From assembly GCA_022706885.1 (NCBI GenBank), contig JAKJBR010000001.1, positions 118,138 to 182,137 of the forward strand: DNA of 64,000 nt, given 5' to 3'. Made by a program: the position numbers and the translations under genes. Below, piece by piece: positions 2,286 to 43,383 of the stretch. The notes beneath the pieces were generated by a model. That model saw only the letters and a program-made list of their open reading frames with translations. It ran no database searches and was not told where the DNA came from. The stretch is from Bacillota bacterium (GTDB taxonomy: Bacteria; Bacillota; Clostridia; DUPQ01). Numbering within the stretch: position 1 is the first letter of the stretch; every line of letters starts with the position of its first letter.

Positions 2286-3964
2286 CATACAAGGATAAGT
2301 ATAATGATTGGTTAAAAAAAGCCGATTCCGATACTATAAAGGAATTGGAAGCTATTAAAGGAAATGAAAAAGAAATAGAAGACAGATTCTATAAAACTCT
2401 GGATTTCGGAACTGCGGGATTGAGAGGCGTAATGGGTGCCGGAACCAACCGCATGAACAAGTATGTAATAGGACAGACCACACAGGCTCTTGCCCGATAT
2501 GTTATAGAGCAGGGCATGGAGAAAAGAGGAGCGGTTATAGCGTATGATTGCAGGATTAAATCCGATGAATATGCAAAACAGTCGGCAACGGTATTGGCGG
2601 CAAACGGAATAAAAGTTTATCTGTACGAGAGTCTGAGATCTACACCGCAACTGTCCTATTCGATAAGGAAACTGAATGCCGCAACCGGTATAAACATAAC
2701 CGCCAGCCATAATCCCAAGCAGTATAACGGATATAAAGTGTACTGGGAAGAAGGATCACAGATATTGGACGACATAGCTGATGCTATAGCCGAAAACATT
2801 TCCCGAATAGATCCTTTTAACGATGTTAAAACCGTGGACTTTAATCAGGCGGTTAAATCGGGACAGATAACAATGCTCGGTAAGGACATGGATGATATGT
2901 TCATAGAAGAGGTTCTGTCCTTAACTTTGAATGACGATATAGACAAGGATGTTAAAATTGTTTATACACCTCTGTACGGTACGGGATTGGTTCCGGTAAC
3001 AAGGATACTCAGAGAAAGAGGATTCCACAATGTGACCGTAGTGGAAGAGCAAAAAGAACCCGACGGAACATTCCCCACCACTCCTTATCCCAATCCGGAG
3101 AATGTTAAGGTTTTTGAAATACCTCTGAAATATGGCAAAAAGACGGATGCCGATATGATAATAGCATCCGACCCCGATTGTGACAGGATAGCCATGATGA
3201 TTAAGAATGACAACAATGAGTTTGTCTTCTGCACAGGCAACCAGACGGGTGCATTACTTGCGGAATACATGTTGTCGCAAAGAAAGGAAAAAGGACTGTA
3301 TTCGCCGAAAGATGCTGTTGTGCAGTCCATAGTAAGCGGCTCGGTTGTGCCCAAAATAGCAAAGCATTACGGAACACATTTCTTTGAAACGCTCACCGGA
3401 TTCAAATATATATGCGGTCTGGCAAATCAATTTGAAAAGACCGGTGAATACAGATATGTATTCGGTTATGAAGAAAGCATCGGATACTGTATAGAAACAT
3501 TTACGCGAGATAAAAACGGAGTCAGTGCGGCCATGATGATGTGTGAAATGGCGGGATATTACAAAAAGCGCGGTATAACTCTTTATGAAGTGCTGACCGA
3601 AATATACGAGAAATACGGTTATATGACGGAAAACCAGATATCTGTGGAATATCCCGGTATTAAAGGGGCAAAAATCAAAAAGCATGTAATGTCGCAATGG
3701 AGGAAGAAACCTCTTCTGAAAATCAGCGGCATTAAATGTTCGGTATGCAAGGACTATATCAACGGATATGAAGGGTTGCCCGCTCAGGATGCCCTTAAAT
3801 ATGAGTTTGAAGACGGTTCCTGGTATGCTTTAAGGCCTTCGGGTACCGAACCGAAACTGAAAGTATATATAAATGCAATGGGACGCTCAAGGAAAGAAGC
3901 CGACGACCTGGTGAAAGTATTCACCGAGGATATATCGGACTATTTGGCAAAGTGCGAGAAATAA
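2282..3964 (+). CDS. phosphoglucomutase/phosphomannomutase (alpha-D-phosphohexomutase family)
   Basis: ORF 2186..3964; start placed at in-frame ATG 2282 ([10 protein letters not shown]) overlapping the kdgK stop; TASHNP active-site motif and GTAGLRG motif. Confidence 0.85.
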
Positions 3965-3968
3965 CGGA

Positions 3969-5432
3969 TTATCTGGCACAGAGAGCGGTCATGTCGGAAA
4001 TCTTTTGAGCAAGCGATTCGGTAAGCATATTATCGGTAATTCTGTAAGTCCAGTTTCCGAAAGCTACGGAAGGGAAATTAATACGGCTTTTTGAACCCTG
4101 ACACAGCCAGTCCTGTATGGGTACAACAGCGGTATTTGCCACGGATTTCATTGTTTCAAAAATCAAGTCGTACACATGAACACGCGACCTGTTTAAGTAT
4201 TTTCTTAAGAAGTCTTTGTTTTTTCTGTCCAGCTTTTTATACCATCCGAGTATTGTATCGTTATCATGTGTGCCGGTATATGCAATAAGATTTTTCTTAT
4301 AGTGCATGGGAAGATTGTCATTGGAAGGCTCTCCGGAAAAACCGAACTGCAGCACTTTCATTCCGGGATAACCGGTTTTTTCCAGTAATCTTCGCACATT
4401 GTCCGTCAACACTCCCAAATCCTCGGCAATTATGCCCATATTACCTCTGGATTGGTTTATCGCATCAATCAATTTCATTCCGGGGCCCTGATGATATACT
4501 CCCGTTGCAGCGGTATCGGAGCCGGCGGGGATGGAGAAGTATCGCTCAATCCCTATAAAATGATCTATGCGTACATAATCATAAAGTAGAGAAGCCATAC
4601 CTGTTCTTTGTTTCCACCAGTAAAAATCCTCCTGCTCCATGGCATCCCAGTCATAGAGAGGATTGCCCCACAACTGACCCGTCGCGGAAAAAGCATCGGG
4701 AGGAACTCCCGCAACCGATGTAAGATTTCTGTCCTCATCGGTCAGGAACAGATAATGTCTGGACCACACATCGGAACTGTCCGGTGATACATATATAGGT
4801 ATATCGCCTATTATCATTATGCCCTTTTCATTTGCATATTTTTTTAATTGTGTCCACTGGTTAAAAAACTCAAACTGTAAGAACTTATGAAACAATATCT
4901 TTTCCGAAAGCTCAGTTCCGTATCTCACCAAAGCATCGTTATGCCTCATCCTTATATCTTCCGGCCAGGACTGCCATTCTTTTCCGTCAAAATGTTCTTT
5001 CAACGACATGAATATTGCATAATCATTAATCCAATATGCGTTATCCCGGCAAAAGGCTTTAAATGAGAGATTTTCTTTATCAAACCTGTTAAAAGCCTTC
5101 TCCAACACCTTATTTCTCTTCCTATATAACAAGCCGTAATCGACCTTGTCGGGATTTTCGCCCCATGGCTCGTTCTGATACTCTTCTTTAAGCAGCAGAT
5201 CTTTGCTCTCCAAAATATCCAAATCTATAAAGTAACTGTTGGATGCGAAACTGCAGAAAGACTGATAGGGAGAATCACCGTAACCGGTAGGTCCCAAAGG
5301 AAGTATCTGCCAGTATTTTTGTTTTGCCGAAACCAGAAAATCTACAAACTCATATGCCGCTTTACCCATGGTCCCTATACCGTAAGGTGAAGGAAGACTG
5401 AAGACGGGAAGTAATATTCCGGATGCTCTCAT
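3969..5432 (-). CDS. malQ: 4-alpha-glucanotransferase (amylomaltase, GH77)
   Basis: 487 aa; N-terminus ILLPVFSLPSPYGIGTMG and overall GH77 sequence pattern. Confidence 0.9.
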   Translation of the reverse strand: MRASGILLPVFSLPSPYGIGTMGKAAYEFVDFLVSAKQKYWQILPLGPTGYGDSPYQSFCSFASNSYFIDLDILESKDLLLKEEYQNEPWGENPDKVDYGLLYRKRNKVLEKAFNRFDKENLSFKAFCRDNAYWINDYAIFMSLKEHFDGKEWQSWPEDIRMRHNDALVRYGTELSEKILFHKFLQFEFFNQWTQLKKYANEKGIMIIGDIPIYVSPDSSDVWSRHYLFLTDEDRNLTSVAGVPPDAFSATGQLWGNPLYDWDAMEQEDFYWWKQRTGMASLLYDYVRIDHFIGIERYFSIPAGSDTAATGVYHQGPGMKLIDAINQSRGNMGIIAEDLGVLTDNVRRLLEKTGYPGMKVLQFGFSGEPSNDNLPMHYKKNLIAYTGTHDNDTILGWYKKLDRKNKDFLRKYLNRSRVHVYDLIFETMKSVANTAVVPIQDWLCQGSKSRINFPSVAFGNWTYRITDNMLTESLAQKISDMTALCAR

Positions 5433-27771: not shown

Positions 27772-29973
27772 TTAATTCTCCAACAACTTGATAAACTGCT
27801 GCTTGTTGACCGCTTCTTTTTCCTTTAACGTATTTGTTGCTTTTATAACTCTCTCCCTATGTTTAAAACTCTCTTCCATTGCATTAATAACGGAGTGTTC
27901 CGTTACATCGGAAAGTTCCAAGCATGCCGAGCTTTCTATATAGTTCATGAAACCCGATACTTTTACATCATAGGATATTCCCACTACGGGAACATAATTT
28001 GCGGCTGCGAATATCAATGCGTGAAGTCTCATTGCTACAACCTGTTCCATCTTTGACATGAATGCCACTACCTGCTCGGTGGGATATTTATTGCGAATTA
28101 AATAGTAAGGTGTATCTAACAGTTCCGCCGTCTTTTCCGACACAGATAAATCCTTGGGATATTCCATAGGGAAGAATATTGTGGTAAATCCGTATTTGTT
28201 ATACATATGCTCGCAGGCTTTTGCAACGGCTTCATTCCTGTTGAAGTTTTTCCAGCTTCTAAGTGCCAGACAGATGTATTTTCCGTCTGCGGGTATATCT
28301 TCCGAAATGAATATCTTATGGGTGTTGCTTTTATCGGCGGTCAGGTTTATTGCGGGGTCTGCGGAAACGGTGATTTGAGGTTTTGTTACTCCTAAAGATT
28401 GCAACTCTTTTTCCGACATATGATCGCGTACCGTTATTACATCCACATAGTTATCAATTATCTTTCCCGACAGCTTTCTGTTGAACGGTCTGGATACAGG
28501 CCCTATTCCGCAGCCGAACATTATAACCTTACAGCCCAGTTTCTTGGCAAGATAAAGAGTAAAGGTGTAGAAGAAAAGCGATCTTGATGATGTCACATCC
28601 TGAATAAGGGAACCTCCTCCGCTTACAAATATCTTGGATTTTCTTAACAGGAAAAACAGCTTTATAACATTAAAGGTGTATATGGTCTGAACTCTGTCGA
28701 TTGCTCTTTCTTTTTTAGGCCTTAAGGTCATTACACATATATCCATATCCGGATCTATATTCCTCATACTGGATAAGGTTGTGTATTTTATTGCCTCATC
28801 ACCGGCATTACCTCGCCCGTATGCTCCGCATATAACTACCTTGTTGCGCTCCTTTTCGTTAAAGTGTTTGAGTATAAGCGAATAGATATCTTCCTGTTTA
28901 TTCTTCATTGCCTTTAGCGAGAAGTTGGCTTTTGTATGCTCATAGGAAGCTTTTTGCATGGTTATGCGTTTATTCTTGTCTTTTGACAGTTGATACAGAT
29001 AATTGCCTAATGTCTCATAATCCTTGGGCTCGAAAATGTATCCGGTAACTTTCTGGTCAATCAGTGAAGATGCTCCTCCCACATTACTGGAAACGGGGAT
29101 GGCTCCCGCCCGGATTCCTTCGGTTAAAGAGTAAGGGAAAGTTTCGCTAAGTGAGGATATTACATCAATGTCTATTACACTGAAAAAGCTGTCCACATCG
29201 TCTATCCAGCCCAAAAAGTGCACCTTTTCACTTACACCCAGTTGATTTGCCAAATCCGTAAGTTTTTGCTTTTCTTCGCCGTCTCCGCCGATAAGAAGAC
29301 GCATATTAGAATTATCGGCATGAGCTTTTGCAAAGCCTTTTATAAGGGTGGGTATATCCTTTATTTTGGTAAGACGTGCCGCTATCCCTATAATCAACTC
29401 GTCGGGATTATACGGTATGCCATATTGTTCAAAATATTCCTGCCTGGATATCTTAGGCATTTCTTTTTCAAAATCAATGCCGTTGTATATGGAAAACATG
29501 TTATATGCCTCAAAGCCTCTGGATATCAGGGTTCTTGCAAACTGTTCGGTAACGGCAATGTGAAACTTTATTATTCTCAAAGCCAATGTATTGAACAGAC
29601 CTATAGTGGCCTGTTTGAACAAGTTATGCATATAGTCTTTTCTGTAATCGGAGTGTATAGTGGTGGTAACACACGCATTTCTGTGCCTTTTAAGAAAAAG
29701 TCCCATCATGTTGGCTTTGGCTCCGTGACAGTGAACTATGTCCGGTTTAAATTTGTCATATTCAATAAAAAGGGCATGAATATCTTTGAGAAGGAAAGCA
29801 CTTTTAATTTCCGTCACATCAATGCCTTCGGCTTTGGCGCTTTCGGCAAAATCTCCGTATCGGAAAGATACCAGTTTAAGAGTATTGGTACGGGAAAGCT
29901 CTTTTGCCAAAGAGATTATATGGGTTTTTGCTCCTCCTATATCACCGCCGCCGGCAAGATGCATTATCTTCAT
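27772..29973 (-). CDS. bifunctional GT4 glycosyltransferase / polysaccharide pyruvyl transferase (CsaB-like) fusion
   Basis: 733 aa; N-terminal GT4 (MKIMHLAGGGDIGGAKTH...) and C-terminal pyruvyl-transferase domain (ICGAYGRGNAGDEAI...FVSGGGSLIQD...FGCGIGP). Confidence 0.75.
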   Translation of the reverse strand: MKIMHLAGGGDIGGAKTHIISLAKELSRTNTLKLVSFRYGDFAESAKAEGIDVTEIKSAFLLKDIHALFIEYDKFKPDIVHCHGAKANMMGLFLKRHRNACVTTTIHSDYRKDYMHNLFKQATIGLFNTLALRIIKFHIAVTEQFARTLISRGFEAYNMFSIYNGIDFEKEMPKISRQEYFEQYGIPYNPDELIIGIAARLTKIKDIPTLIKGFAKAHADNSNMRLLIGGDGEEKQKLTDLANQLGVSEKVHFLGWIDDVDSFFSVIDIDVISSLSETFPYSLTEGIRAGAIPVSSNVGGASSLIDQKVTGYIFEPKDYETLGNYLYQLSKDKNKRITMQKASYEHTKANFSLKAMKNKQEDIYSLILKHFNEKERNKVVICGAYGRGNAGDEAIKYTTLSSMRNIDPDMDICVMTLRPKKERAIDRVQTIYTFNVIKLFFLLRKSKIFVSGGGSLIQDVTSSRSLFFYTFTLYLAKKLGCKVIMFGCGIGPVSRPFNRKLSGKIIDNYVDVITVRDHMSEKELQSLGVTKPQITVSADPAINLTADKSNTHKIFISEDIPADGKYICLALRSWKNFNRNEAVAKACEHMYNKYGFTTIFFPMEYPKDLSVSEKTAELLDTPYYLIRNKYPTEQVVAFMSKMEQVVAMRLHALIFAAANYVPVVGISYDVKVSGFMNYIESSACLELSDVTEHSVINAMEESFKHRERVIKATNTLKEKEAVNKQQFIKLLEN

Positions 29974-37233: not shown

Positions 37234-37387
37234 TTTTTTACATATTGACTTTTTGCAATATTTCGTGATTAACGGAATGAGATTCCGAAAAAATTGTCGG
37301 AATTCTTTCTTATAGTATAAAAAAAAGCATTTTTGTCAGTAGACATATATCGGCAATAACAATAGCATGATACTCGAAAGGAGTATT

Positions 37388-38560
37388 ATGAAGAAATTTA
37401 CATCTTTATTGCTTGTCATATGCTTAATACCGGCAGCCGGAGTATGCGGTGTTAATGCTCAGGCTGCAGGTTCACGGTTTAGCGATGTGCAATCATCCCA
37501 GTGGTTTTTTGAACCGGTCATACAGTTGTACGGAATGAATATTATAAACGGATATCCCGATAACACATTCAAACCCGACGGCAATGTCAAAGCCGATGAG
37601 TTGATAAAAATGATAATAAAAGCGCTGGGTTTTGATATAGGTAATGCTGAAGGTTACTGGGCTCAAAATTACATAGATAAAGCAGGTGATATTAAGCTTT
37701 TGGAAGGATTTGACGGTGAATATCAAAAAGAGATTAACAGAGGGCAGGCAGCCTTGCTTATCTCCAATGCCATGACATACCTTAAGGAGCCGGAATTTTA
37801 TTCGGAAAAGATATATCCGTTTGATTTGGGCGCATATACACCTGATAAGTATAAAGAGCATATAAAAAAGTGCTACAATGCGGGAGTTATTAACGGGTTT
37901 GAAGATTTCACTTTCCGATTCAATGAGACGCTTACCAGAGCACAGGCCTGCACCTTATTAATCAAGCTTATCGATAAAACAAAGAGAGATACCTCGGTGA
38001 GATTCGATTGCTCGTTTTTGGATAATACAACCAAAGATAATGTGCAATACAAGGGTGTTACATATGAGGAATTATCCGATGTTATAAAATCCACTCTAAC
38101 AGAAGTAAAGGATGATATCGGGTATATAGTGGTGGAAAAAAGAGTTTATGAGACCAAGAATACATATGAGATCCGATACCACAAATCCGCCATAAATACC
38201 AACCCCACATATTGTTTGTTTGCTTTCAGGTTTTTTGGAGGTCCGTCGGGATATACCGAAACACAGTGGGGTTACGATACAATGTTTTTAAAGTTGGAAC
38301 TGAAGAAGTTTAACTGGGATGACGGTATACCCGATAGCTTCTATAAGAGTAAAGTTAAAAATGCACTGTGTGCAGCTTTATCCGAACATAATCCTTATGA
38401 TATAGCGGATTATGTAATAGACAGATATGTATTTTTACGTGCTTTAAAACCTTGGGATGCATATAACCTGTTGGAAGACAATTCCAATGAAACATTGAGG
38501 TATGTCTTTTTCACTATGCACAATGTAATAGGCAATTTTACTTTTTCAAATAAAAAATGA
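37388..38560 (+). CDS. S-layer-homology (SLH) domain cell-wall-anchored protein
   Basis: ORF 37367..38560 trimmed to ATG 37388; signal peptide; SLH-like segments FSDVQSSQWFFEPV...GYPDNTFKPDGNVKADEL. Confidence 0.6.
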   Translation: MKKFTSLLLVICLIPAAGVCGVNAQAAGSRFSDVQSSQWFFEPVIQLYGMNIINGYPDNTFKPDGNVKADELIKMIIKALGFDIGNAEGYWAQNYIDKAGDIKLLEGFDGEYQKEINRGQAALLISNAMTYLKEPEFYSEKIYPFDLGAYTPDKYKEHIKKCYNAGVINGFEDFTFRFNETLTRAQACTLLIKLIDKTKRDTSVRFDCSFLDNTTKDNVQYKGVTYEELSDVIKSTLTEVKDDIGYIVVEKRVYETKNTYEIRYHKSAINTNPTYCLFAFRFFGGPSGYTETQWGYDTMFLKLELKKFNWDDGIPDSFYKSKVKNALCAALSEHNPYDIADYVIDRYVFLRALKPWDAYNLLEDNSNETLRYVFFTMHNVIGNFTFSNKK

Positions 38561-38610
38561 AAAGGTAAGTATAGAGCAAAATAAATAGCGCAACTTATGG
38601 AGAAGATAAC

Positions 38611-41136
38611 ATGAAAAGAGCTATCCTGTCTTTGATTACGATAATTTTACTGTTAAGCATGTGCATTAACGCATTTGCATATTGTGAAAGTTTTGAGAGA
38701 ACCGGAAAACACATAAATGTCGCATATGTTTCCGATGTACACACTCCGCAAGGTCATCAATGCGGATATATTTGTCAGGATTGCGAGTTGATTACCGTGA
38801 CGGGATATACAACACTTTCAACATGTTGTCGGTGCACCGGTAATCATAACTACTATACACTTTCTGTCGGATCTCATACCGCTTACGGGCATTTGGTAAA
38901 ATTGAAGTGCTCAACCTGCGGATACACGACCTCCTACTATAAAAAAGATGACAGCTGCTGTGATTGTGTCGGTCATATTCGAGGTCTCATGGAAATAAAC
39001 ACGGAGCATACGCAGGGACTGGGCCATTATTACACCGTTCCCTGTAAGGAATGCGGAGCGATTATAAAAAGCGGATATACAACACTGGCGTCATGTGCTA
39101 TCTGCAATTGCAGTCATTCCTATACAACAAGCATATCCGATTATCATACGTCCGGATCGGGACATTACTATACCAAGAAATGCAGTAAATGCGGCTATGT
39201 TTGCGATTCGGGATATACAGAGAAATCCGACTGTTGCGAATGCAGAGGATACCATAATTACAGTTACAGCGTATCTCCTGCTCATACAACATACGGACAC
39301 TATGTTACACAAAGATGTTTTGACTGCGGACATAATGCCGACTATTACACGACAGTACCCACCTGCTGCTATTGCAGAGGTTATCACAATTACTCATATA
39401 CCGTATCACAGGAACACACTGTTGACGGGCATAAAAAGACCGGTACCTGTTCTGCATGCGGGCATATCACCGTATCTTATACAACACTTGCCGACTGCTG
39501 CCTGTGCAGGGGATATCATGATTTTTCCGAATGGTCGCCGGTTTCAAAAATACATGAGGAACAAGGACATCGACAGAGCAGAACCTGTAAAATTTGCAAA
39601 CAAACGGAAGACAGGTTTACTACATACAGACCGTGTTGCTTATGTCACGGACATGATATGCAGAAGACATCGAATATAGGGGAGCATACCGATTTCGGGC
39701 ATGCCGTCATATACAGATGCATAACATGTGGATATGAAGAAACAATATACGAGGACATGTTCGGCTGTTCTTTATGTTCCAATACTCCCACAAATCAGGA
39801 GGAGTTTATGCTATGGATACAATATTTAGGAATACCTGTAAAAAGTGTAAACGGTAACTATACCGTATCCTTCACAATGTACCGTGATTACGGATATATT
39901 GTTTACGGTAATCCTCAAGATGTAGTGAATAATCATTGTGTAGCAGGTGAATATCAGTTCTTGGGATATACGTTTGATGAAGACCCTTTTACCAATATAT
40001 CTTATCAGAACACCGAAATGGGTCCCGTTAATGCTAATCAGTGGATATATGCCGAAATATCCGGAGCGGTCGAATCGTGGGACAGGCTGGAGCCTTCGGT
40101 GCAAAAACCGTATATGCTGCACACAAATCTTATAGGGCACGGAGCGGTGAATTTTACCGCAAATGATATAGGTATGGCTAAGACAAGGGTGCAGAACGGC
40201 GCATCCTGGCTCAGTACCGGTTCCATCTATACCTTCAAAACCAACGGATATTATGCCACTTTCAAGGTTCCTTCAATGGGTGTTCCCGATGTAAATCTGA
40301 ATGCCGCTTTTACTGAAGAAAGGCTTACCTATTCCGCTGCCGATGTACATAAGAAAGGATATATCAATGTAAACTTCACCATAGACAAACCTCTTAAGGA
40401 AATTGACTATATAAAACTGTCGGTACAGGGAGGTAACAGCATTATTCTGCAGCCTCATGAAAGAAACGGGCAACTGGAGCTGGACATACCGATTCAGAGT
40501 GTCATGCCGGCAAGGTATAAGGTGAGGGTATTAATAGAAGTTAAGAGCATATTTAACGATGTTCATATAACAAGAGAGTATTGTTCTGTAGACCTTTATA
40601 AAGAAGAGACTCCGTATAACCCGACTGATCCCGTACAGCCGGAGGAAATAATATCCGACCTGCCGGAAGATATTCCGTATCAAGCGAATTATGATATTCA
40701 CGTTACCGACATTTCATTGACGGGTTACTGGAATATATGGCATCTGAATGAAAGATTTACCTCACTGGAAAGAGTTCGCTTAAATGTGGCGGTTGAGGGA
40801 AGAGTAACAAAACTGTCGGTCATATTCAGTGAAGAATTGAAAAACCGCACATACCGGGACAAATACGGAAACACCTATGATTATAAAGAGCTTTTAGGCA
40901 GTTATGACATGTGCCCGAATGATATATGTTATGAAGGATTATGGGAGAACGGCTACACATTGAATACGGAATATATACTTCCTCTGTGTCCCGATACCGT
41001 TGATTCTTCCGGTAACAGAATAAAGGATAAGTATTTTATAAAAATAATAGCCGAAAACGAGAATAAGGAGCACACAAAGGAATACCTGATTGATATTACC
41101 GGCAACATTTATGATTTTCTGTATGTGCAGCCATAG
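38611..41136 (+). CDS. secreted protein with eight tandem about-45-aa Cys/His-rich modules followed by about 450-aa Cys-poor C-terminal region
   Basis: 841 aa; signal peptide MKRAILSLITIILLLSMCINAFA; modules follow HT-x2-GH-x5-C-x2-CG-x6-8-YTT-x3-CC-x-C-x-G-x-H-x-Y; nucleotide repeats 38710..39800 generate spurious overlapping ORFs on other frames. Confidence 0.7.
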   Translation: MKRAILSLITIILLLSMCINAFAYCESFERTGKHINVAYVSDVHTPQGHQCGYICQDCELITVTGYTTLSTCCRCTGNHNYYTLSVGSHTAYGHLVKLKCSTCGYTTSYYKKDDSCCDCVGHIRGLMEINTEHTQGLGHYYTVPCKECGAIIKSGYTTLASCAICNCSHSYTTSISDYHTSGSGHYYTKKCSKCGYVCDSGYTEKSDCCECRGYHNYSYSVSPAHTTYGHYVTQRCFDCGHNADYYTTVPTCCYCRGYHNYSYTVSQEHTVDGHKKTGTCSACGHITVSYTTLADCCLCRGYHDFSEWSPVSKIHEEQGHRQSRTCKICKQTEDRFTTYRPCCLCHGHDMQKTSNIGEHTDFGHAVIYRCITCGYEETIYEDMFGCSLCSNTPTNQEEFMLWIQYLGIPVKSVNGNYTVSFTMYRDYGYIVYGNPQDVVNNHCVAGEYQFLGYTFDEDPFTNISYQNTEMGPVNANQWIYAEISGAVESWDRLEPSVQKPYMLHTNLIGHGAVNFTANDIGMAKTRVQNGASWLSTGSIYTFKTNGYYATFKVPSMGVPDVNLNAAFTEERLTYSAADVHKKGYINVNFTIDKPLKEIDYIKLSVQGGNSIILQPHERNGQLELDIPIQSVMPARYKVRVLIEVKSIFNDVHITREYCSVDLYKEETPYNPTDPVQPEEIISDLPEDIPYQANYDIHVTDISLTGYWNIWHLNERFTSLERVRLNVAVEGRVTKLSVIFSEELKNRTYRDKYGNTYDYKELLGSYDMCPNDICYEGLWENGYTLNTEYILPLCPDTVDSSGNRIKDKYFIKIIAENENKEHTKEYLIDITGNIYDFLYVQP

Positions 41137-41997: not shown

Positions 41998-43383
41998 TTA
42001 TTTTACCATTCCCAACAGTTGTCGTACCCGTTTTTGCAGATGCTTTTCAATTGCCGTCAATCGCTCTTCCGGCCAGTTAACGGACGGATGCCTCTTGAAG
42101 GTAAAACCGATTAAACGACGCAACTGCTGTGCCTGTGCTTTTCCCGCAACTTCTCTGCAAATGTCTTCGAATGTTACATCCGGATAAGCGGGTAGACGGG
42201 TTTTAGCATATTGGTCAAGGTTTTTGATGTCTTTAGGCATAGCATAATTAAACAGTGAAAGTCCGTGGTCAAACAGAGGTGCAGGGGCAATCAATGCACC
42301 TGAATGATTATCTCTTAAGACTCCGAAATTTCCGAAGTGTCTGTCCTCATTGTAGATTACCGCGTCAAATACCAGCATGCTGTGTACCGCTTGGAGAAAA
42401 TCTTCCCCGATTGAAGAATAGTATTTTAATACCGCTTTCAAACCGCCCGATGTTACAATGCGTCCTACCGGTACAAAAGCGGTATCAATATCACAAAACA
42501 ACTTGCATTTTGAAGCTAAAATACCTTTCCAGTTCTCCAATTCATACTGCACGGCATTTAGACCCATGGTCTGTGCAATTTGGCAAGCATAATATTCACT
42601 GTAAGGCTCGTTTCCCGTATTAGCGGCACCGAATGTGCCTCCCTTATACAAGTAAATACCGTCATTATCAATAAGGCGCCATGCTTTAGGCAACATTCCG
42701 GCAGTAGTCAGCTCCGGCGAGGTTGTGAAACCTCCGTGACTTTGCTCTATACCCGTATAGGCAACCAAAGAAAGAATTTCCGAAAAACGGTTTTCATAGA
42801 GGTTATACTGAGCAAAGGAACCTTCAAAGCCCTCCGGGACTACCCAAAAACTGTCGTTAAGCGACAAGCCCTTGCAAATATCAATAATACCTTTAGTATC
42901 ACCTTGAGACAGATTTAAAGTTTTCAAGATCTCTTTCACAAAGGTACGGTTTTTAGGAATCACTCGTTTCTCCAACCATCTCAAAATGCCTTTATCAGAC
43001 AGTTCCAATCCAAGCGGGAGTAAGTGAAGTTGTTCCTTGTCAATAGAAATAATATGTGCTGTCAATCCTTCAATTCCTCTTTTCTCAAGAGAGAAAGTGA
43101 GTAATACTTTGTCAAAGAGCCGTAACTCGTAGTTGTTTTTCATATGGGAAAGTACTTTCGTTGAAGGTGCTGTCAGTTCAATTTTCAGCTCCAAAACCGA
43201 AGCCACTTGTAGTAAAAGGTCCAATGAAGGACTGTGACTTCCGCTTTCCAAGCGTGATATGGCGGAACGGTGCATACCTAAAAGTTCAGCTAACTGACTT
43301 TGTGTGAGACCTTTAGCAACCCGTGCTTTTGTAATCTGTTTGATAATATCCTGACGAAAGTCTTTAATATTATTGTCCGTCAT
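41998..43383 (-). CDS. HTH (XRE-type) - HipA-like Ser/Thr kinase fusion (HipH/YjjJ-like toxin)
   Basis: 461 aa; N-terminal HTH GLTQSQLAELLGMHRSAISRLESG; C-terminal HipA catalytic loop VIYNEDRHFGNFGVL; own promoter TTGACA-17-AATAAT at 43402..43430. Confidence 0.7.
   Translation of the reverse strand: MTDNNIKDFRQDIIKQITKARVAKGLTQSQLAELLGMHRSAISRLESGSHSPSLDLLLQVASVLELKIELTAPSTKVLSHMKNNYELRLFDKVLLTFSLEKRGIEGLTAHIISIDKEQLHLLPLGLELSDKGILRWLEKRVIPKNRTFVKEILKTLNLSQGDTKGIIDICKGLSLNDSFWVVPEGFEGSFAQYNLYENRFSEILSLVAYTGIEQSHGGFTTSPELTTAGMLPKAWRLIDNDGIYLYKGGTFGAANTGNEPYSEYYACQIAQTMGLNAVQYELENWKGILASKCKLFCDIDTAFVPVGRIVTSGGLKAVLKYYSSIGEDFLQAVHSMLVFDAVIYNEDRHFGNFGVLRDNHSGALIAPAPLFDHGLSLFNYAMPKDIKNLDQYAKTRLPAYPDVTFEDICREVAGKAQAQQLRRLIGFTFKRHPSVNWPEERLTAIEKHLQKRVRQLLGMVK

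Follow-up and report, generated by a model that had tools for sequence, protein, structure and literature searches.

Eight tandem Cys/His modules in a secreted protein

The 64,000-nucleotide stretch of contig JAKJBR010000001.1 (GenBank assembly GCA_022706885.1; a Bacillota bacterium of the Clostridia) analysed here, hereafter the window, harbours at 38611..41136 (+) a gene for an 841-amino-acid (aa) protein in which eight small Cys/His modules precede a C-terminal half of Athe_2463 type. We read this array, with a confidence about evenly poised between right and wrong, as a chain of small metal-stabilised units (the metal probably being Zn) that forms a stiff, ligand-stapled stalk on an SLH-tethered surface protein, and the module appears to serve as a spacer in other secreted proteins too. 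If confirmed, this would be a new extracellular repeat domain, in which a knuckle mini-fold lies outside the cell in head-to-tail arrays whose neighbours seem to share ligands, and a metal-stapled rod would replace the usual Ig/FnIII or Pro/Thr linkers.

The open reading frame (ORF; 841 aa plus stop codon) was taken from the ORF list and is matched by an identical public protein (P0001); a Shine-Dalgarno sequence, GGAGAA, was read directly at 38599..38604 (+), 8 nt before the ATG. The protein starts with a signal peptide (aa 1-23, 38611..38679 (+); MKRAILSLITIILLLSMCINAFA followed by Y), which is its sole hydrophobic segment and has equivalents at the N-termini of relatives, and the AFA/Y end reads as a signal-peptidase-I site, pointing to a secreted protein as the initial annotation had proposed. 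Neither an LPXTG motif nor a second transmembrane segment was found in the 841 aa. A short N-terminal cap (aa 24-36, 38680..38718 (+)) with Cys25 and His34, recognised from MAFFT alignment and orthologue conservation, leads into eight consecutive modules of 44-46 aa each (aa 37-395). On the same strand these are module 1 (aa 37-81, 38719..38853), module 2 (aa 82-125, 38854..38985), module 3 (aa 126-171, 38986..39123), module 4 (aa 172-217, 39124..39261), module 5 (aa 218-261, 39262..39393), module 6 (aa 262-307, 39394..39531), module 7 (aa 308-351, 39532..39663), which holds the single CxxCH of the protein, and module 8 (aa 352-395, 39664..39795).

The pattern H-x4/5-H-x5-C-x2-C-x12/13-C-x2-C matched eight times in the repeat region and never more than once in any of 20,000 composition-preserving shuffles; translating the window in all six frames yielded no further match. 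The initial annotation had described one template with four Cys for all eight modules; its substance holds, but the template has five Cys, and modules 3 (variant tail C-x2-C-x-C-x-H) and 8 (a plain CxxC second knuckle without the extra Cys and trailing His) deviate from it. Its counts of about 32 Cys and 28 His within 360 aa are to be replaced by 42 Cys and 27 His in the 372 aa of the repeat region (aa 24-395), and the C-terminal region that it called beta-rich and Cys-free is beta-rich indeed, but Cys-poor, with 5 Cys and 9 His in 446 aa.

The array is genuine, and neither recent duplication nor assembly from a shorter array, an artefact that the initial annotation had considered, accounts for it. 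Tandem Repeats Finder detected no array at the DNA level, and pairwise DNA identity among the modules is 32-60%. An ENA cluster of 40 sequences (P0001) contains the eight-module protein at 100% identity; an independent metagenome-assembled genome (MAG) likewise encodes 841 aa with eight modules (C-terminal half 97% identical), and the register is retained in orthologues at 77, 66 and 49% identity.

Conservation is concentrated on the putative ligands. Seven columns (H, G-H, C-x2-C and C-x2-C) are invariant in the 36 modules of five orthologues, and the same seven, arranged as H-x4/5-GH-x5-C-x2-C-x12/13-C-x2-C, remain so when the set is widened to 62 modules (16 proteins). In a comparison of three orthologues, 40 of the 42 Cys (95%) and 25 of the 27 His (93%) are identical, against 55% of the other residues, and the four Cys or His that are not conserved (C51, C198, H241 and H285) are exactly those outside the module template. 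Besides the ligand residues a Tyr is nearly invariant. Paralogous modules are 30-45% identical to each other, with surface positions poorly conserved beyond the ligands and that one Tyr, and the array varies in length, with seven or eight copies.

A putative ligand pair that depends on the following module

The extra (fifth) Cys of a module is the second C of C-C-x-C and pairs with the trailing His. Modules with a successor 13-16 aa downstream carry such a further ligand pair after or inside knuckle 2 (CC...H, C-x-H or H-x-H), with the exception of one P0009 module that has a single His only, while all 15 terminal or single modules end in a plain CxxC without the extra Cys. As the extra Cys and the trailing His are present only when another module follows, they can be taken as functionally part of the next unit.

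Ahead of first modules, a Cys is found at about −18/−19 and a His at −9/−10. In MAFFT alignments Cys25 falls into one invariant column with the extra Cys (the second C of CCxC), and the Cys25/His34 cap is kept in P0002-P0004, P0008 and P0031. Judged by this alignment, the cap gives module 1 what a preceding module would otherwise contribute, an extra Cys and a trailing His. Counted in this way, exactly 16 putative four-ligand sites would be filled by the 40 conserved Cys together with 24 of the 25 conserved His.

Predicted fold and putative metal sites

AlphaFold2 (AF2) was run on aa 24-125 (the cap plus modules 1 and 2) with a 20-row alignment of non-overlapping two-module segments from six proteins, all in register, and gave a model of mean predicted local distance difference test score (pLDDT) 91.6. 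Each unit is modelled as a three-stranded antiparallel sheet (strands 13-22, 25-32 and 38-44) with two knuckles: a short helix at C-C-x-C (or at the cap) leads into strand 1, which ends at the first His; after a tight turn, strand 2 runs from G-H to knuckle 1, and strand 3 and a short loop then lead to knuckle 2, which opens the short helix of the next unit. The His pair lies at the hairpin tip beside the end of strand 3 and knuckle 2, and the preceding tail with its extra Cys and His lies at the opposite end, beside knuckle 1. Together with the Cys/His conservation and with the weak PDB matches described below, this two-knuckle sheet bears out the likeness to a repeated metal-binding knuckle that the initial annotation had noticed.

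From the strand pairing in the model, we favour a partition into a predicted site X, formed by His-x4-His and the second CxxC of the same unit (Cys2His2), and a predicted site Y, in which the first CxxC is joined by the extra Cys and trailing His from the unit before it (Cys3His). In the mechanism proposed, each unit would hold two tetrahedral metal ions, likeliest Zn2+, and the whole chain 16. One site of each pair would be shared between neighbours, with unit n contributing its extra Cys and trailing His and unit n+1 the other ligands, and the shared site of unit 1 would be completed by the Cys25/His34 cap. The interdigitated ligands (C-C-x-C-x3-H) would join successive units rigidly, and the resulting rod would be a stalk or spacer that keeps the N-terminus away from the anchored core, and the SLH partner would most likely tether this core to the pyruvylated cell-wall polymer.

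Comparison with known domains and systems

The initial annotation's statement that the module is not a described domain was borne out. Pfam gave nothing above threshold for the protein, the repeat region or single modules, NCBIfam and PHROGs gave nothing for the Cys/His array, and PDB sequence searches (phmmer with the protein; module profiles) gave nothing significant; in none of these four libraries was there a significant match to a known extracellular Cys-rich family. Sub-threshold matches were all to zinc-knuckle models (DUF7695, Mutator, Lar, SCAND3, UBR and desulfoferrodoxin), and every weak PDB match of the module was a zinc-knuckle protein. Foldseek with the confident AF2 model returned none at E<=0.001, the best being RNA polymerase I subunit A12.2, a protein with two zinc ribbons, at E 0.26. 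The module resembles the zinc-ribbon class without reaching significance in any family-match test, and is best filed as zinc-ribbon-like, but extracellular, tandem, with two putative sites per unit and with ligands that neighbours seem to share. Under the exact phrases tried, with hyphenated spellings not covered, the literature held nothing on DUF7695 or on tandem or extracellular zinc ribbons. The module is invisible to Pfam and NCBIfam, hence its carriers are annotated only as ‘hypothetical'.

The C-terminal zinc ribbon of TFIIS, Rpb9, RPA12 and RpoM (C-x2-C-x24-C-x2-C; Pfam PF01096) comes nearest: like the AF2 model of the module, it has two CxxC knuckles on a three-stranded antiparallel sheet, and its 24-residue spacing equals that from knuckle 2 of a module to knuckle 1 of the next. 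It was the top match both by profile (1qyp, E 0.078; RPA12, E 0.29) and by Foldseek (4c2m_I/X, E 0.26-0.32), though none of these matches is significant. Membership of the TFIIS-type ribbon family was not borne out by any significant sequence or profile match, by significant structural superposition on a solved ribbon, or by a Pfam match of any single module even at E<=10. Known zinc ribbons are single cytoplasmic domains of nucleic-acid machinery with one Cys4 site, and zinc-ribbon-type knuckles almost always occur in that setting. The module arrays, in contrast, have two putative sites per unit and invariant His, seem to be interlocked head to tail and are secreted.

Ribosomal protein uS14 type Z (CxxC-x12-CxxC) and rubredoxin share the intra-module knuckle spacing and the common CxxCG, and gave weak profile matches (E 0.3-0.5) that are not significant; they lack the His pair, the extra Cys and His and the tandem repeats, and the AF2 strand topology argues against one metal common to both knuckles of a module. 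For rubredoxin in particular, the protein has six CxxCG but no CPxCG, and there was no Pfam match, the PDB rubredoxin standing at E 0.4. Pfam DUF7695 (PF24749) is the sole curated model that touches the module, covering both knuckles of module 3 in P0002 with 24.3 bits (E 2.5e-5). This falls just short of the gathering score (25); the window protein had no match at E<=1, its module 3 alone scored 13.9 bits, and the model spans the knuckles only, without the His pair. The streptococcal surface proteins PhtA/B/D/E offer a Gram-positive parallel, each chain having several copies of a Zn-binding motif (PMC3842936), but their motif (HxxHxH) and fold differ, they have no Cys, and their genes are linked to the zinc importer AdcAII.

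Other candidates were rejected. A multihaem c-type cytochrome is at odds with one CxxCH only (aa 342), Pht-like triads with the lack of any HxxHxH in the 841 aa, and an HNH or His-Me nuclease with a different ligand order and no Pfam match. A precursor of a ribosomally synthesized and post-translationally modified peptide (RiPP), or one like SCIFF, fits neither an 841-aa secreted protein nor a neighbourhood without a maturase. Phage origin is countered by the lack of a PHROG match and by housekeeping neighbours.

Occurrence of the module

Searching 1.84 billion cluster representatives exhaustively with the module profile (hmmsearch) identified 18 proteins at E<=1e-3, among them five at E<=1e-10; their named sources are all uncultured Clostridia, and the clusters have 1-3 members each, all metagenomic. 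Four (P0004, P0008, P0031 and the partial P0016) share the architecture of the window protein. In the others the module follows an S8 subtilase (P0010, Mobilitalea sp.), lies inside an S8 plus RHS/YD protein (P0021, Lachnospiraceae), stands ahead of an M23 peptidase (P0013), accompanies a sub-threshold ricin-like lectin match (P0012) or occurs as a single copy (P0024). P0009 and P0011 read as having the module before a cohesin-like C-terminus, a reading made in the absence of a Pfam hit.

In P0019 and P0023, CARDB is accompanied by a sister repeat with H-P-H in place of H-x4-H. This sister repeat, present in many copies and not detected by Pfam, reads E(A/S)HPHKEY-x-C-x2-C...Y-x-G...CC-x-C-x-G-H and alternates with C-x6-C-x2-C-G units. 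Its presence in secreted CARDB proteins suggests a wider superfamily of extracellular Cys/His knuckle repeats.

The Athe_2463-type core and its SLH partner

The array is followed by an Athe_2463-type domain (about aa 396-554, 39796..40272 (+)), indicated by NCBIfam NF047340 and by family alignments, and the best-conserved part of the family. NF047340 matched aa 422-551 with 27.2 bits (E 4.7e-6), below its cut-off of 36. The array-free, signal-peptide-bearing proteins P0006, P0007, P0025, P0026, P0028 and P0029 (504-511 aa) align end to end with the C-terminal half (33-36% identity; about 80 invariant columns), and since two of them, P0006 and P0007, exceed the cut-off (42 and 45 bits), the core of the window protein is transitively homologous to the Athe_2463 domain. 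As judged from these alignments, the Cys/His array is an optional, lineage-specific add-on to a core that is conserved in a small family of Clostridia proteins.

Downstream on the same strand lie a beta-sandwich domain (about aa 555-665, 40273..40605; AF2 pLDDT 85-90, all strands), an acidic, Pro-rich linker (about aa 669-693, 40615..40689; pLDDT <50) that is replaced in P0006 and P0007 by longer Pro/Thr-rich linkers, and a second beta-sandwich domain (about aa 695-827, 40693..41091; pLDDT 65-88). AF2 modelled the two sandwiches well and the Athe_2463 part poorly (pLDDT 30-60), and the Foldseek matches of the sandwiches are generic, being tandem Ig/FnIII-like surface proteins (RbmA, integrin legs, Enterococcus WxLIP and S-layer HPI). 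The extreme C-terminus (aa 828-841, 41092..41133 (+); DITGNIYDFLYVQP) is conserved in the 12-member family alignment, where T, G, N, Q and P are invariant in 12 of 12. All 12 carry the motif D(I/M)TGN(I/T)Y(D/E)xL(Y/H)xQP 0-2 residues from the protein end, and it may serve in sorting or in docking to a partner.

A search of 185,579 species genomes for the core gave 11 loci, nine in full length and two only weakly matched. Apart from Caloramator australicus (one of the two weak matches) they come from uncultured MAGs, whose labels are mostly Clostridia or Clostridiaceae. Closest is Clostridiaceae bacterium AS08sgBPME_331 (L004; 97%), whose isolate label presumably denotes a biogas-reactor series. 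Athe_2463 itself is a secreted protein of Caldicellulosiruptor bescii that is about 16-fold more abundant on xylan/xylose and is co-expressed with its operon neighbour Athe_2464 (PMC5865380). It shares with the window protein secretion and the domain type of the core's start; no Cys/His array is reported for it, and the window protein stays below the model cut-off.

Directly upstream, at 37367..38560 (+), lies the gene of a 397-aa secreted protein with N-terminal SLH domains (Pfam SLH, E 1.1e-20) and a conserved C-terminal domain. A terminator-like site precedes this SLH gene (37281-37304), and none was found between it and the ORF at 38611..41136; the 841-aa protein has no Pfam SLH match itself. 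An SLH homologue is found in this position at every family locus with upstream sequence available (the window, L001, L002, L003/L008, L004, L005, L007, L009, L011 and L012), whether or not the array is present. The partner is 32% identical over 365 aa to that of L003 (E 2e-59), a similarity that reaches beyond the SLH domains. Its C-terminal half (about aa 215-397) has no Pfam match, yet the L003 alignment extends to aa 334; this half is a candidate docking domain for the Athe_2463-type protein.

SLH domains anchor to pyruvylated wall polymer, a link in which CsaB takes part. About 9 kb upstream of the array gene, at 27772-29973 (−), the window encodes a 733-aa fusion of a GT4/GT1 glycosyltransferase and a CsaB-like polysaccharide pyruvyl transferase, which is kept at the equal relative position on L001 and fits an anchoring of the SLH partner to such a polymer. 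In relatives, SigI-like sigma and RsgI-like anti-sigma factors directly precede the SLH/Athe_2463 pair (L003/L008, L007, L009 and L010-L012; in L003 they lie at 2880-4783), so as to form a four-gene cassette, and on L009 seven Cys/His modules occur together with the SigI/RsgI pair. This pair is absent from the whole 64-kb window. SigI/RsgI is a sensing system of cellulolytic clostridia (PMC6056542). The module also offers a handle on the hitherto unstudied SLH/Athe_2463 pair of surface genes in anaerobic Clostridia, a pair that is under SigI/RsgI in relatives.

A proposed stalk and its alternatives

A structural spacer is preferred because the array is optional, its copy number is 7-8 and the surfaces of its paralogous modules are poorly conserved, and because the module sits between unrelated extracellular domains and no metal-transport or redox genes lie nearby. 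The 16-site total holds, by the count of ligands in the sequence, under either way of partitioning them. Several points nevertheless weigh against the stalk or its details. A stalk is the default reading for repeat arrays, and this one may instead have a binding role. Ligand distances and site partition are predictions drawn from strand topology rather than coordinates; the AF2 alignment mixes paralogous modules, and the predicted template modelling score (pTM) was only 0.61, so that the model is less reliable on how modules are oriented to each other than on the fold of one module. On paper, an alternative partition into a Cys4 ribbon from both knuckles plus a Cys1His3 site fits the ligand count equally. 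It is hinted at by the weak match to uS14 type Z, in which knuckle 1 pairs with knuckle 2 (CxxC-x12-CxxC), and the degenerate modules of P0010, which keep the His pair and knuckle 1 and have lost knuckle 2, fit neither partition neatly. That alternative, however, would leave the chain only five residues, and no strand, to cover about 20 Å on its way back, and the TFIIS/RpoM ribbon, aligned from knuckle 2 to knuckle 1 of the next module with 24-residue spacing, agrees, again weakly, with site Y.

Capture, buffering or storage of metal is an unlikely alternative, in which the 16 Cys/His sites would bind Zn, Ni, Co or Cu reversibly on the cell surface and pass them to importers in the manner of Pht. 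Dense, conserved soft-metal ligands on a secreted protein would suit such a role, as might sulfidic digesters, where free trace metals are scarce, if the label of L004 does refer to biogas. Pht surface proteins, which hand Zn from repeated sites to AdcAII, are a precedent (PMC3842936). The Pht genes, however, are operonic with adcAII, whereas neither a metal transporter nor a metal-responsive regulator was found near the gene, so that the scavenging role listed in the initial annotation gains nothing from the gene context. Closed four-ligand Cys/His sites that lie buried at the ends of a mini-sheet are typical of structural, slowly exchanging metal, a storage role is hard to square with single modules inside peptidases and an RHS protein, and the HxxHxH motif is missing.

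We likewise hold it unlikely that the units are small multivalent binding domains for a polysaccharide, a surface protein or a partner cell, with metals that stabilise the fold only. Such an adhesive role would accord with the lectin-like, CARDB and cohesin-like regions and the degradative enzymes with which the module co-occurs, with the roughly 16-fold induction of Athe_2463 on xylan/xylose (PMC5865380), with SigI/RsgI directly upstream of the SLH/Athe_2463 genes in relatives (PMC6056542), and with modules that are rich in Tyr (9.7%) and Thr (12.4%) and have their one nearly invariant Tyr. But a common ligand-binding face is hard to reconcile with paralogous modules of 30-45% identity and poor surface conservation; Pfam and NCBIfam scans revealed no similarity to a carbohydrate-binding module or adhesin family, and the lineage of the window is without the SigI/RsgI pair.

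It is improbable that the array is a functional multi-metal surface device, either as a regularly spaced chain of some 16 redox-active Fe or Cu centres that relay electrons across the wall or S-layer in syntrophic digesters, or as a high-capacity Zn/Ni/Co antenna for uptake in sulfidic surroundings. Such a device, if real, would represent a new class of extracellular metalloproteins made up of zinc-ribbon-like units that interlock.

A metal-free repeat scaffold held by disulfides, like the Cys-rich extracellular repeats of eukaryotes, was another candidate role in the initial annotation. The extracellular location and the even number of conserved Cys (40) are in its favour, but it must be called highly improbable: disulfides do not explain why three His in each unit match the Cys in conservation and follow the neighbour-dependent rule as these do, and the invariant His and the closed four-ligand accounting disfavour it. 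Moreover, metal sites typically show such CxxC spacing and CxxCG knuckles, the number of Cys per unit is odd (five), and the hosts are strict anaerobes of reducing habitats, which rarely form extracytoplasmic disulfides.

That the rod is a redox wire, with Fe (rubredoxin-like) or Cu sites relaying electrons across the wall or S-layer, is barely credible, for the rubredoxin-like CxxCG knuckles, the weak profile matches to rubredoxin and a cytochrome c family protein, the regular spacing of sites that the model would imply and a habitat that the MAG source suggests to be syntrophic are set against a single CxxCH (hence not multihaem), no rubredoxin or Fe-S family match, no redox partner, cytochrome or quinone-linked gene nearby, mononuclear sites that at an estimated 15-25 Å apart would be poor relays, and the presence of the module in peptidases; nor did positive evidence emerge for the redox-active adhesin of the initial annotation.

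The immediate reach of the preferred reading, the metal-stapled stalk, is modest: the family is rare and restricted to lineages without cultured members, and no established open question hinges on it. The structure of the array is nonetheless unusual and cleanly testable.

Gene neighbourhood

Around the array gene, the neighbours are a DUF3108 protein, an HD hydrolase, the SLH protein and PurN. Two further regions of the window were noted. The segment 12226-22092 (+) stands out by a G+C content of 0.46-0.50, the rest being at about 0.40; it codes for an MFS sugar transporter, a tannase/feruloyl esterase, a beta-lactamase-family protein, a BD-FAE esterase, a GH78 alpha-L-rhamnosidase, a GH43 protein and a metallo-beta-lactamase-fold protein, and is probably an acquired island for the use of plant polysaccharide side chains. 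Finally, the gene at 41998-43383 (−) encodes a 461-aa protein in which an Xre-type helix-turn-helix (E 3.6e-15) is joined to a HipA-like kinase C-terminal domain (sub-threshold, 25.5 against 30.5 bits), and which may be a HipA-type toxin/regulator on one polypeptide.

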